IMG/VR virus record: IMGVR_UViG_2778261269_000005
Location: 1-37,915 of that record
Direction: 5' to 3' (one strand)
DNA length: 37,915 nt
Source of the DNA: a virus
Lineage: Duplodnaviria > Heunggongvirae > Uroviricota > Caudoviricetes
This document shows, piece after piece, positions 30,621-34,058 of the stretch. The translations under genes and the position numbers were made by a program. Under the pieces are notes generated by a model that worked only from the letters and a program-made list of their open reading frames with translations, was not told the DNA's origin and did not search any database. Within the stretch, counting starts at the first letter, position 1. Each line of letters starts with the position of its first letter.

Positions 30621-30705
30621 CTCGGTTTAGTGTTTTTTTCGAGTTTAGTGTTTAATAAACCATTAAGTCAAGTATTTGCTTATTTAGTGATTACTAAAGA
30701 TAATT
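30621..30705. promoter_or_regulatory. OR-like operator/promoter region between Cro-like gene and repressor
   Basis: GTTTAGTGTTT at 30625-30635 and 30643-30653, TATTTAGTGA at 30681-30690, TTAAGTCAAGTA at 30663-30674; TTGACT and TTGCTT-17-GATAAT promoter-like hexamers. Confidence 0.5.
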
Positions 30706-30710
30706 ACCAC

Positions 30711-31082
30711 ATGCAAAAAAAAGAAATTCGCCGTTTACGTCTCAAGGAGTGGTTTAAAGATAAAACTCTGCCACCCAAAGAGAAGAGCTACCTATCTCAA
30801 CTAATGAGTGGGAGGGCCTCGTTTGGAGAAAAGGCTGCCAGAAGAATAGAGCAAACATACGGGATGCCGGAAGGGTATCTGGATGCGGAATACGCAGAAC
30901 AACCGGAAGTTTCTCCACCACATGTAGGGTTAACGTCTAATCAACTGGAATTATTGCAGATTTTTTCAGCCTTCCCTGAGGATGAGCAACGCCAGATAAT
31001 CAGCGAGTTAAAGCAGAAAAAAGAATCAATGGAAGATCTCATAGCGAGATGGATTGCGGCGCAAAAATGCCGCCGCGCCTGA
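30711..31082 (+). CDS. prophage repressor, XRE-family HTH without S24 peptidase domain (CI analogue)
   Basis: Start set at ATG 30711 (123 aa): MQKKEIRRLRLKEWFKDKTLPPKEKSYLSQLMSGRASFGEKAARRIEQTYGMPEGYLD; almost no leader after the -10-like GATAAT. Confidence 0.65.
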   Translation: MQKKEIRRLRLKEWFKDKTLPPKEKSYLSQLMSGRASFGEKAARRIEQTYGMPEGYLDAEYAEQPEVSPPHVGLTSNQLELLQIFSAFPEDEQRQIISELKQKKESMEDLIARWIAAQKCRRA

Positions 31083-31102
31083 GTTATAAAACCGGAGGAA
31101 AC

Positions 31103-31294
31103 ATGAATAGAGCCCTTTCACCAATGGTTTCTGAATTTGAAACCATTGAACAAGAAAACAGTTACAACGAATGGCTGCGTGCGAAAGTAGCAACGAGCCT
31201 TGCAGATCCGCGCCCAGCAATTCCCCATGACGAAGTTGAGCGCAGAATGGCAGAACGCTTTGCTAAAATGCGCAAGGAACGGAGCAAGCAGTAA
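31103..31294 (+). CDS. putative type II antitoxin
   Basis: Start set at ATG 31103 (GGAGG RBS), 63 aa; stop 1 nt before the toxin start. Confidence 0.55.
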   Translation: MNRALSPMVSEFETIEQENSYNEWLRAKVATSLADPRPAIPHDEVERRMAERFAKMRKERSKQ

Positions 31295-31295
31295 A

Positions 31296-31574
31296 ATGTT
31301 ACCCGTGTTATGGCTTGAAAGCGCAGATACCGACCTAGATGATATAACTAGTTATATTGCTCGTTTCGACATAGATGCGGCTGAACGCTTATGGCAGCGA
31401 TTAAGGGGTTGTGTGCTGCCGTTATCCGAACATCCGTATTTATACCCACCAAGCGACAGAGTACCTGGCTTGCGTGAGATTGTAGCCCACCCTAACTATA
31501 TAATTCTATACCGCGTAACAACATCAAGCGTTGAAGTAGTAAACGTGATCCACACAAGACGCCAGTTTCCCTAA
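31296..31574 (+). CDS. RelE/ParE-superfamily toxin
   Basis: Start set at ATG 31296 (92 aa): ...LREIVAHPNYIILYRVTTSSVEVVNVIHTRRQFP is RelE/ParE-like. Confidence 0.65.
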   Translation: MLPVLWLESADTDLDDITSYIARFDIDAAERLWQRLRGCVLPLSEHPYLYPPSDRVPGLREIVAHPNYIILYRVTTSSVEVVNVIHTRRQFP

Positions 31575-31640
31575 CTTTCACTACCAATAGAAACATAACA
31601 ACCGCAACGACTTTATCAAAAGCGTTGTGTTTGTTACGCC

Positions 31641-31690
31641 CCATGGTTTAGTTTTTACTTGACTTAAGTTTAATGTTTATTAAACTAAAA
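31641..31690. promoter_or_regulatory. OL-like operator/pL-like promoter
   Basis: GGTTTAGTTTTT, ACTTGACTTAAG (inverse of the OR TTAAGTCAAGT) and TTTAATGTTTATTAAAC repeat the OR elements; TTGACT-16-TAAACT on the plus strand. Confidence 0.5.
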
Positions 31691-31865
31691 ATACCAACCC
31701 ACCCCGCCCCACAGAACGCAGGGCAATACTTCGAGTTACCATGCAGTGGTCAGGGGGTAAGTAGCCAGCCCGAGGCGTAAGAACATGACGGCAGGGTTCA
31801 ACTTTAATAACTATGCAGCAGGTTTTTGTTCCGCTACCCCGGCGTTAAGGGGAAATGAGGTCAGC

Positions 31866-32021
31866 ATGGATACTATCGATCTTGGCAACAACGAATCTCT
31901 GGTATACGGCGTGTTTCCCAACCAGGACGGAACGTTCACCGCCATGACGTATACCAAAAGCAAAACGTTTAAAACCGAAACTGGCGCGCGTCGCTGGCTG
32001 GAAAGAAATTCAGGTGGGTGA
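31866..32021 (+). CDS. ydfA: YdfA-like small protein
   Basis: Start set at ATG 31866 (GAGGT RBS): MDTIDLGNNESLVYGVFPNQDGTFTAMTYTKSKTFKTETGARRWLERNSGG, 51 aa. Confidence 0.7.
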   Translation: MDTIDLGNNESLVYGVFPNQDGTFTAMTYTKSKTFKTETGARRWLERNSGG

Positions 32022-32022
32022 T

Positions 32023-32151
32023 ATGGATTTCGACACAATCATGGAAAAGACTTACGAAGAATACTTCGAAGGCCTTGCCGAAGGCGAAGAAGCTCTCGGC
32101 TTCAGCGAATTTAAACAGGCGCTTTCCAGTTCGGCAAAATCTAACGGCTGA
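32023..32151 (+). CDS. ydfB: YdfB-like small protein
   Basis: Hand-translated 42-aa ORF MDFDTIMEKTYEEYFEGLAEGEEALGFSEFKQALSSSAKSNG; below the ORF-track cutoff. Confidence 0.65.
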   Translation: MDFDTIMEKTYEEYFEGLAEGEEALGFSEFKQALSSSAKSNG

Positions 32152-32180
32152 TAAGCGAAACAGCACCGCGAGGAATCAGT

Positions 32181-32399
32181 ATGCAGAAACGAGAACCCGT
32201 CATCATCGCGCCAGACTATACCGATGATAAACTTTATGAGTGGATGCGCCAGAAAATTAATGCAGCGCAGGATCTGAAATGGGCCAATGAAGCCAGGGCT
32301 AAGCAGGCTGAAAATCTGTCCGCTCTGGAGCAGGATATCACCAGGCTGGAAAAAGCAGCGGCATTAAGCATTGCCAGAATGGTTACATACCCACGTTAA
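32181..32399 (+). CDS. ydfC: YdfC-like protein
   Basis: 72-aa ORF MQKREPVIIAPDYTDDKLYEWMRQKINAAQDLKWANEARAKQAENL... Confidence 0.7.
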   Translation: MQKREPVIIAPDYTDDKLYEWMRQKINAAQDLKWANEARAKQAENLSALEQDITRLEKAAALSIARMVTYPR

Positions 32400-32421
32400 T
32401 AGCTAACCAACGAGGCTAATA

Positions 32422-32796
32422 ATGGAATTTAAAGATTTACCAATGCAATTCCAGGAAATGGCAGCGAATATAGTTCGTTCCCAACTGGCGACTCTTGACC
32501 TGAGTACCGTAGAAAAAGAAACCATCGATACTATATCCGGTAACGTGCGTCGTGCCTTTATCGGGCTGTACGAAGAGAAGCAGCTCTCTGATAACCAGGA
32601 TTTACATGAAAAATACTTCATGGAATTAATGGATATCATTGATAAGGGGTTTGGCTTGTTAATGAAAAAGAAATGGATTCGGATAGACCCCCTTAAGAAC
32701 CATTTTACTGAGTGCGGCATTAATCCCAGCGATTTAAACCATCCCGCCACAGATGGGAGTGTTACAGTTAGCCATGAAATTTCGATTAATCATTAA
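32422..32796 (+). CDS. hypothetical protein in AT-rich insertion
   Basis: 124-aa ORF with GAGG upstream; no family recognised; 3' end overlaps the convergent gene by 11 bp. Confidence 0.45.
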   Translation: MEFKDLPMQFQEMAANIVRSQLATLDLSTVEKETIDTISGNVRRAFIGLYEEKQLSDNQDLHEKYFMELMDIIDKGFGLLMKKKWIRIDPLKNHFTECGINPSDLNHPATDGSVTVSHEISINH

Positions 32797-33007
32797 AATC
32801 AATTGCACTTTCAATAAGTGATGCCATCTCATTGCATTTTGTTGAATTCATCTTACGCAATGAGTCACAAATTTCCGCTGGCTTTGATGACGCAGGCAAC
32901 TTAGCAGCAAGTAGCATAATTGCCGTTTTTATAGCAGTGAGTTCATCCGCAAGTCCAGCAGGAGAAACATCGTGGTTAAACTGGATATTTACATTTTTAC
33001 TAGTCAT
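32786..33007 (-). CDS. hypothetical protein, convergent partner in AT-rich insertion
   Basis: 73-aa ORF with strong AGGAGGG RBS 5 nt upstream of ATG 33007; no family recognised. Confidence 0.5.
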   Translation of the reverse strand: MTSKNVNIQFNHDVSPAGLADELTAIKTAIMLLAAKLPASSKPAEICDSLRKMNSTKCNEMASLIESAIDFND

Positions 33008-33338
33008 TTCACCCTCCTAAGGGTTGGTAATTAAGGAGTTCTCCACGGGTCAGGTGGAGTGCGTGCGCCGGACACGGGTGAGCATCCGGCACTGGCAGTT
33101 TACTGAAAGGATATATCCCTGAAAAGTCAGGGCATAACGCGGAAGCGCACGGCGAAGTTCGTCTCTATGTACGGCGTAGTTAAATTTAATTCGACCGTAC
33201 GCTTCCGGTTGTGGCAATACGCGAAATGGCGCGGCGGTAAGTATGGCGGTGTTATTCCTTCCCCGTTGAGGACACCGGGTTGTCAGGTTGACCATACGCT
33301 TAAGTGACAACTCCGCTGCAACGCCCTCTGTTATCAAT

Positions 33339-33396
33339 TTTCTGGTGACGTTTGGCGGTATCAGTTTTACTCCGTGGCTGCTCTGCCGCCCTTTTT
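33339..33396 (+). ncRNA. dicF: DicF small regulatory RNA
   Basis: TTTCTGGTGACGTTTGGCGGTATCAGTTTTACTCCGTGGCTGCTCTGCCGCCCTTTTT matches remembered DicF nearly base-for-base, with 3' hairpin and U-run, upstream of dicB. Confidence 0.85.
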
Positions 33397-33592
33397 AAAG
33401 TGAATTTTGTGATGTGGTGAATGCGGCTAAGCGCACGCGGAACAGTTAAAAGACCATTTGTTCTCCGTATCAATACTTATGGGTAGGTACTTGCAGGCGG
33501 GTCCCTGTATTCCGGCGTTAATTGTTAACTGGTTAACGTCACCTGGAGGCACCAGGCACCGCATCACAAAATTCATTGTTGAGGACGCGATA

Positions 33593-33781
33593 ATGGAAAC
33601 GTTATTACTCAATTCCACTACGCCTGAGACTCGTTTTGAAATTGGCGTTATCACTGGCGATAAAAACTTTATTGAGGATGCCATTAATCAGATAAAGCAT
33701 GAGCCAGATTCATCAAATGAGATATGCATTGCTTCAATGCTGGCCCGTTTACGCCCGACGCAAAAAGGATGCTGGCAATGA
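33593..33781 (+). CDS. dicB: cell division inhibitor DicB
   Basis: Start set at internal ATG 33593 (62 aa): METLLLNSTTPETRFEIGVITGDKNFIEDAINQIKHEPDSSNEICIASMLARLRPTQKGCWQ. Confidence 0.85.
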   Translation: METLLLNSTTPETRFEIGVITGDKNFIEDAINQIKHEPDSSNEICIASMLARLRPTQKGCWQ

Positions 33782-33981
33782 ATACCACATTTGCACTTGT
33801 TCTGACGGTTTTTCTTGTTTCCGGTGAAACAGTTGACATGGTTATTGGCGTATACAGCTCAATGAAAGAATGCATGGCTGCCGCAGATGAACAGAAAATT
33901 CCCGGTAACTGTTATCCGGTCGATAAAGTTATTCACCAGGATAATAACGAAATCCCGGCAGGACTTAAAACAGCGCCGTAA
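33778..33981 (+). CDS. ydfD: YdfD-like small membrane/lysis protein
   Basis: Start set at ATG 33778 (ATGA overlap with dicB stop): MNTTFALVLTVFLVSGETVDMVIGVYSSMKECMAAADEQKIPGNCYPVDKVIHQDNNEIPAGL... Confidence 0.7.
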   Translation: MNTTFALVLTVFLVSGETVDMVIGVYSSMKECMAAADEQKIPGNCYPVDKVIHQDNNEIPAGLKTAP

Positions 33982-34058
33982 TTGATATTCGGTTTCATTT
34001 TTATATGTCAGCAATGACAGGGATTTGTTCACCCTTAAATCTGTAATGAGGTTTATCA

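Follow-up and report, generated by a model that had tools for sequence, protein, structure and literature searches.

Between ydfC and dicF this prophage carries two small genes, one read with the surrounding operon and one against it, and the locus raises the question of whether they form a functional pair or are two accessory genes that have come to lie side by side. A reading made from the letters alone (hereafter the sequence-only reading) had described them as convergent ORFs of 124 aa (plus strand) and 73 aa (minus strand) that overlap by 11 bp at their 3′ ends, and had thought of a toxin/antitoxin or small defence pair. The coordinates of the two ORFs, here called ORF124 and ORF73, are as it described. 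We consider below where the genes came to lie, what they encode, how they are distributed and how the reverse gene might be expressed.

An extra block in the dicBF operon

The window (the whole stretch of DNA analysed, 37,915 nucleotides) has the following features around the site:

32181..32399, plus strand: ydfC, an ORF named ydfC in the annotation of near-identical genomes (phrog_1744; 96% identity to K-12), the last conserved gene before the insertion
32420..33016: 597-bp block without counterpart in K-12 Qin, its contents being exactly ORF124, ORF73 and the ORF73 Shine-Dalgarno sequence
32422-32796, plus strand: ORF124, 124 aa, operon-sense accessory gene
32786-33007, minus strand: ORF73, 73 aa, reverse-oriented
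33012..33018, minus strand: Shine-Dalgarno sequence AGGAGGG of ORF73, common to all the unrelated reverse ORFs at the site
33034..33092, minus strand: structured leader upstream of ORF73 (hairpin 1, hairpin 2 and a CUCCU element)
33097..33125, minus strand: candidate ORF73 promoter, picked out by eye
33340-33391, plus strand: DicF sRNA (Rfam RF00039, 75 bits, E 6e-15)
33593-33781, plus strand: dicB (Pfam DicB, 2.9e-26), toxic downstream operon gene
33778-33981, plus strand: ydfD/DUF1482 (Pfam DUF1482, 2.5e-24), toxic downstream operon gene

The order ydfA, ydfB, ydfC, DicF RNA, DicB and YdfD on one strand is that of a dicBF-type (Qin-like) early operon, known in E. coli K-12 Qin as ydfABC-dicF-dicB-ydfD (PMC5069750). 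In a blastn comparison with K-12 Qin, positions 31828-32419 (96% identity) and 33017-34053 (84%) align to adjoining K-12 sequence with a 4-nt overlap, and 32420-33016 is therefore absent from K-12; in K-12 as in UTI89, ydfC is followed directly by the dicF leader. The insertion into a conserved operon that the sequence-only reading proposed is thus confirmed, as 597 bp of low-GC DNA with clean junctions. Its GC content is 0.40 vs a window mean of 0.505 (sd 0.047), a value as low as which is found in 2.6% of the 597-bp stretches of the window, so that the reported drop is real and the word ‘sharply’ a little strong. ORF124 starts 22 nt past the ydfC stop, with GAGG at 32412-32415, 6 nt ahead of its ATG, and its 3′ end overlaps that of ORF73 at 32786-32796. 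ORF73 has the strong ribosome-binding site claimed for it, AGGAGGG (33018-33012) followed by 4 nt (TGAA) and the ATG; the 5-nt spacing given earlier holds when counted from the AGGAGG core.

Transposon-like terminal repeats flanking the 597-bp block were looked for and none were found. A short inverted repeat, ACCAAC...GTTGGT (32406-32411 and 33023-33028), brackets the block, which occupies its loop; at K-12-like empty sites that loop is only 9 nt, and a CTAA microhomology is common to the block junctions. Other elements have entered this operon elsewhere: in several ETEC genomes (e.g. NZ_CP022912.1, 2844696-2846931) an IS1 lies within the ydfC–ORF124–ORF73 region and splits the match into two or three pieces, and in two related prophages (L004, 2791-2979; L008, 3327-3515) isrK and a C4 antisense RNA beside a Rha-family gene are inserted in a truncated dicB downstream of dicF, an insertion that the window is without. 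Upstream, the AT-rich gap between parE and ydfA (31640-31700, plus strand) holds a promoter-like sequence, read by eye as TTGACT, a 16-nt spacer and TAAACT, which is likely the equivalent of the DicA-controlled promoter of the dicB operon.

The two genes and the question of a pair

Both proteins belong to families already on record without a function, which agrees with the earlier statement that neither could be recognised. Near-identical proteins are catalogued in RefSeq (WP_000394538.1 and WP_000202162.1 for ORF124 and ORF73, respectively) as hypothetical, and ORF124 falls in phrog_6937 (its N-terminus also matching phrog_1363, 2151 and 9419) and ORF73 in phrog_7249, both ‘unknown function’. 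Profile searches of Pfam, NCBIfam and PADLOC (PADLOC-DB 2.0) gave no match for either, PDB sequence and profile searches gave nothing, and Foldseek of the AF2 models against the PDB (both proteins) and BFVD (ORF73) returned nothing with E below 0.5. The structure and profile checks from which a functional identity might have come are accordingly negative for both proteins.

ORF73 is taken to be a soluble protein, acidic (pI 5.2) and without a transmembrane segment (maximum 19-aa Kyte-Doolittle window 1.27), and is modelled by AF2 as three helices (16-36, 44-52 and 56-72; pLDDT 76). Its family is small (18 clusters among 5.8 billion proteins; 15 matches among 1.84 billion representatives) and confined to the Enterobacterales genera Escherichia, Salmonella and Yersinia, across which the protein sequence is kept down to 32-47% identity with eight invariant residues (A25 K27 L32 K36 P38 P43 S49 L50). 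We guess that it is a small protein-binding factor. One member, gp050 of Salmonella phage 118970_sal3 (L017, 4788-5204), is annotated as 138 aa and matches the ORF73 family only from an internal Met65 to its end (hhalign probability 98.8%); the deposited start is probably too far upstream and the annotation over-extended. A tandem duplication in gp050 was considered and rejected, hhalign giving a single ORF73-like domain.

ORF124 is built differently, with a conserved N-terminal part of about 55 aa (MEFKDLP...NVRRAFIGLYEEK), a C-terminal part that is mosaic in alignment, and a last stretch of about 20 codons that varies with the reverse cargo. The AF2 model (pLDDT 62) has helices at 8-23, 32-55 and 59-84 and a disordered tail (87-124), and the protein is not hydrophobic (maximum 19-aa Kyte-Doolittle window 0.53). 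Its 239 homologues are all from Enterobacteriaceae (Escherichia and Salmonella) and are all labelled ‘hypothetical’. ORF124 is best explained as an operon-sense accessory gene of an ordinary kind, whose helical N-terminal domain is conserved and whose C-terminus recombines.

Short ORFans without domain matches can be annotation artefacts, here in a non-coding leader, yet we regard that explanation of one or both ORFs as having a negligible chance of being right. For ORF73, comparison with homologues from E. coli, Salmonella and metagenomes, at identities down to 64%, gives a dN/dS of 0.08-0.26, and for ORF124 the value is about 0.3 in both halves; such values well below 1 occur in the annotated frames only, and the alternative frames have stops in homologues, among them a rival 62-aa plus-strand ORF that is interrupted by stop codons in ORF73 homologues. 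ORF length is conserved across genera, and both genes have good Shine-Dalgarno sequences. Both genes are under purifying selection.

The two genes differ in how widely they occur. Among 5,426 complete E. coli genomes, with ORF124 counted by its C-terminal half at 80% coverage or more, we found:

ORF73: 88 genomes
ORF124 C-terminal half: 544 genomes
allele B (135 aa with reverse 77 aa; e.g. O157:H7): 650 genomes
allele C (133 aa with reverse 92 aa): 125 genomes

About 84% of the genomes with the ORF124 C-terminal half are therefore without ORF73, ORF124 standing alone in about 456. The allele of the window is carried by ETEC strains such as B4103-1 and TW10598, at 98.8% identity across a 681-bp query that takes in the cassette. 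From the common ORF124-only allele (e.g. O157:H7 Z1767, L007) ORF73 is missing together with its Shine-Dalgarno sequence and the 3′ arm of hairpin 2; with half of a hairpin gone as well as the gene, this allele has arisen by deletion, and ORF73 can evidently be dispensed with. ORF73 homologues in turn occur away from any ORF124-type gene, in Salmonella prophages (L010, L011 and L015), a metagenomic prophage (L016) and Salmonella phage 118970_sal3, and in Yersinia between antiterminator Q and the holin (L013) or in the early-left operon (L014). In every fully resolved context the ORF73-family gene lies reversed within a phage operon of one direction, its 3′ end overlapping that of the forward gene by 11-83 bp (on the short contig L012 the downstream partner of the homologue is cut off); it is the sole reverse gene in most contexts, L014 and L017 each having a second. 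The forward partners are mutually unrelated (124 aa, 57/66 aa, 76 aa, a 90-aa zf-ClpX protein and 111 aa). The ORF124 body likewise occurs beside another reverse gene, rev91, or without any, and a forward domain marked by ‘LLEDAKRLQQ’ has rev92 as its partner in E. coli and rev73 in Salmonella and L016. In the Yersinia prophage L014 (4149-4639) a second reverse ORF, of 77 aa (phrog_28250), converges with an 86-aa forward gene with a 4-bp overlap; that forward gene is of the ‘LLEDAKRLQQ..EPNAGT’ family, the same domain that forms the C-terminus of the allele C forward protein. The reading best supported by these distributions is that ORF124 and ORF73 are two independent accessory genes, not an obligate pair.

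They bear directly on the proposal that ORF124 and ORF73 are a toxin/antitoxin or small two-gene defence module in which one product neutralises or controls the other. A convergent, overlapping, cargo-like pair of low GC is what drew attention to it, and in E. coli ORF73 lies beside an ORF124-type gene in 88 of 88 cases; against it stand the uncoupled frequencies (544 vs 88 genomes), the unrelated partners of ORF73 homologues and the pairing of the ORF124 body with rev91 or nothing, together with searches of PADLOC, Pfam, NCBIfam, PDB and folds that gave no match, and we consider it very unlikely. By K-12 knowledge, moreover, the forward gene lies in an operon that is repressed in lysogens; if it is off there, as the K-12 analogy implies, products encoded on opposite strands would not be co-expressed as such a pair needs. 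Set beside type II systems, the genes are convergent on opposite strands rather than co-directional and co-transcribed, the partners do not keep company (88 vs 544 genomes; unrelated ORF73 partners) and no homology to a known toxin or antitoxin family or fold was found (Pfam, NCBIfam, PADLOC, PDB, Foldseek vs PDB and BFVD). Set beside type I systems, neither partner is a non-coding antisense RNA, both being conserved reading frames with dN/dS of 0.1-0.3, and neither is a small hydrophobic or membrane toxin (Kyte-Doolittle maxima 1.27 for ORF73 and 0.53 for ORF124). Nor did either protein match a known anti-phage defence system in PADLOC-DB 2.0. The tight linkage of ORF73 to ORF124-type genes in E. 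coli, as well as that within allele B (650/652 genomes) and allele C (125/169), is explained by linkage, which leaves some room for functional pairing.

A related idea is that forward and reverse proteins are matched allele by allele, as cognate polymorphic pairs: the forward protein would have an effector as its variable C-terminal domain, and the reverse ORF would supply the immunity protein or partner that fits it. The layout resembles that of pore-forming colicin operons, in which an immunity gene of reverse orientation separates the toxin gene from the lysis gene, and lysis-type genes lie downstream here; the forward N-terminus is conserved with a variable C-terminus, to one form of which each E. 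coli reverse family is tied. We nonetheless think there is very little chance that it holds, with ORF124 alone in so many genomes, rev73 beside unrelated forward proteins elsewhere, the ‘LLEDAKRLQQ’ domain shared between rev92 and rev73, and co-variation expected anyway of neighbouring DNA between two recombination anchors.

A toxin/antitoxin system of this prophage does exist, 850 bp upstream of the ORF pair, in a three-gene module (30630-31574) ahead of ydfABC:

30630-31082, plus strand: paaR2-like HTH gene
31103-31294, plus strand: PaaA2 antitoxin (PF21217, 1e-19)
31296-31574, plus strand: ParE toxin (PF05016, 1.6e-16)

PaaA2/ParE is the real toxin/antitoxin of this prophage, and the module as a whole we take to be the paaR2-paaA2-parE2 three-component system of O157 prophages, its domains being identified by Pfam. 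Two relatives (L008 and L009) have RelB/RelE-ParE annotated at the corresponding position.

A site with varying reverse genes and a shared leader

Seen across genomes, the site between ydfC and the dicF leader varies in its contents. A 17-nt leader motif, run against IMG/VR, picked out 134 sites, of which about 83 are empty and K-12-like (counting with them some chance motif matches and a small number of ORF124-only deletion sites, allele D) and about 51 carry a reverse ORF that starts from the same GGAGGG-ATG; about 60% of the sampled sites are thus empty, as in K-12. A small reverse ORF occupies this fixed position in roughly a quarter to 40% of dicBF operon copies, the lower figure (about 23%) being that of the three alleles in complete E. 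coli genomes and the upper (about 38%) that of the IMG/VR sample. The reverse ORFs, of 63-96 aa, fall into at least six families (rev73, rev77, rev92, rev91, rev69/63 and rev96), among which we detected no similarity in the comparisons made; rev73, rev77 and rev92 were compared with one another, and rev92 with a Yersinia reverse ORF, and homology was rejected in each case. Known domains were sought in the other reverse ORFs with none found, and PADLOC gave only a weak BrxA-like match for rev91 (E 0.014). Alleles A, B and C share a right junction, TTCACCCTCCT[A/G]AGGGTTGGTAATTAAGGAG, which contains the Shine-Dalgarno sequence of the reverse gene and lies directly upstream of its start codon, and all reverse ORFs at the site overlap the 3′ end of the forward gene. 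The forward gene ends differently with different cargo: the ORF124 body has the tail ...ISINH with rev73 and ...SINSFDSK(QEN) with rev91, which fits forward ORFs that read a few codons into exchangeable cargo.

On balance, then, we favour the interpretation that the segment is one state of a variable slot of Qin-like (dicBF-type) prophages, downstream of ydfC and ahead of the dicF leader, and that ORF73 is an autonomous reverse moron rather than half of a two-gene module. It is present or absent in collinear relatives with sharp boundaries, and its base composition differs from that of the flanks. Cargo has probably been swapped through recombination, with the conserved 5′ portion of the forward gene on one side and the conserved leader on the other, and the 11-bp overlap would arise as the forward ORF reads a few codons into the 3′ end of the cargo.

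The leader itself has three elements on the minus strand:

33092-33063, minus strand: hairpin 1
33059-33041, minus strand: hairpin 2
33038-33034, minus strand: CUCCU element, which can pair with the Shine-Dalgarno sequence

Folded as minus strand, 33092-33007 forms two strong hairpins and a third helix involving the Shine-Dalgarno sequence (-35.7 kcal/mol, z -3.36, matched by 1 of 200 shuffles); folded as plus strand, the leader DNA gives z -0.44. Compensatory changes in the Salmonella and metagenome loci affect both hairpin 2 (CTCCAC/GTGGAG to TCCCAAC/GTTGGGA or TCCCG/CGGGA) and the anti-Shine-Dalgarno pairing (CTCCT/AGGAG to CTCCAT/ATGGAG). All dicBF-type leaders, those of K-12 and empty sites included, have hairpins 1 and 2 in conserved form, and the two hairpins may for that reason serve the operon-sense RNA instead; G-U vs A-C variants, as a guide to the working strand, point both ways. 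The two-hairpin element may form a 5′ UTR for the reverse genes, or else act in processing or antitermination of the operon RNA, which must read through the DicF terminator. A search of Rfam with the leader hairpins found no family, inspection of the leader by eye found no LexA box or operator, and a palindrome, GGATATATCC, is not conserved in the other alleles.

A promoter scanner reported none on the minus strand of 33008-33500. The candidate ORF73 promoter has a -35 TTTTCA (33125-33120), a 17-nt spacer and a -10 TAAACT (33102-33097), matching at 8 of 12 positions, below the scanner threshold, and homologous loci, when scanned, give no consistent picture, with a single plausible site in L012 and none in L013, L015 and L016. 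No intrinsic terminator was found after ORF73, where the 3′ region folds with z +1.46. In K-12, DicA represses the dicB operon; from this repression and from the reverse orientation of ORF73 we infer that ORF73 is probably expressed in the lysogen. A weak promoter of its own would drive it as long as the dicBF operon is shut off, with translation from the strong Shine-Dalgarno sequence behind the structured leader; once the prophage is induced, convergent transcription of the operon and pairing of sense with antisense RNA would silence it. Its protein may bind a host or phage protein to the benefit of the lysogen, e.g. in superinfection exclusion or modulation of a host function.

The leader invites two further interpretations. 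Unrelated ORFs under one leader and Shine-Dalgarno sequence, with no terminator after ORF73 so that transcripts would run antisense into the operon, might mean that the reverse gene acts mainly as a transcription unit with its protein secondary, so as to hold down read-through that leaks into dicF, dicB and ydfD in the lysogen, or to destabilize the ydfC/ORF124 mRNA via RNase III; this slot and the Yersinia Q–holin site both lie upstream of toxic genes. We find this improbable in view of the conservation of the ORF73 protein (32-47% identity, invariant residues, dN/dS 0.1-0.2), the operon working without a reverse gene at the 60% or so of sites that are empty, and the minus-strand promoter scan that gave nothing. 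Going further with the protein, the leader and Shine-Dalgarno sequence could be a dedicated reverse-strand slot into which at least six ORFan families have been swapped, expressed only in the lysogen and turned off at induction by convergent transcription of the operon, as diversifying lysogen-benefit factors that would be, e.g. inhibitors of incoming phages or of host proteins. This is a tentative proposal that we think rather unlikely as a whole; a stronger version of it would have each factor matched to the variable C-terminus of the forward protein.

Significance and comparison with known systems

The direct finding is an ordinary one, a pair of catalogued hypothetical prophage genes in a prophage moron or variable accessory region, which is a known kind. 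A plausible-looking toxin/antitoxin call proves very unlikely, and the real toxin/antitoxin is located nearby. The dicBF operon has been studied for DicF/DicB toxicity and phage resistance, and the slot adds variable reverse ORFs to it. If these are expressed in lysogens, they offer a compact and tractable set of small proteins that may affect phage–host or phage–phage interactions, and the accompanying antisense transcription could alter DicF/DicB output in pathogenic strains such as ETEC and EHEC, where it is not known to have been considered. Searches of the literature on the accessions, on dicBF antisense transcription and on reverse morons in early operons found nothing specific. A slot in which interchangeable ORFans share a leader appears to be undescribed in the literature searched, and appears a modest refinement rather than a new category.

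One close relative is the K-12 Qin dicBF operon itself, the same operon with flanks 96% and 84% identical and with DicF, DicB and YdfD, from which the window differs by 597 extra bases with two genes. The paaR2-paaA2-parE2 system shares the early region of the prophage with ORF124 and ORF73; its genes are on the same strand and co-transcribed, with recognizable PaaA2/ParE domains, whereas ORF124 and ORF73 have none of these properties. Convergent, 3′-overlapping transcription units in a prophage early region recall the RalR/RalA type I system of the Rac prophage and the 3′-overlapping type I systems txpA/RatA and bsrG/SR4. These pair a toxin, in most cases a small hydrophobic peptide (RalR being an exception), with a non-coding RNA, whereas ORF124 and ORF73 are both protein-coding under purifying selection, neither is hydrophobic, and there is no sequence similarity. 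The morons of lambdoid prophages (the concept of Juhala and Hendrix; examples are bor and lom of lambda and HK97 gp15) are extra genes in some of a set of collinear prophages, and ORF73 resembles them in this respect as well as in its clean boundaries, lower GC and orientation against the surrounding operon. Classical morons carry their own promoter and terminator, whereas for ORF73 scans found neither (the candidate promoter matching at 8/12), and they differ further from the site described here in that several unrelated ORFs come to lie in it under one conserved leader and Shine-Dalgarno sequence.
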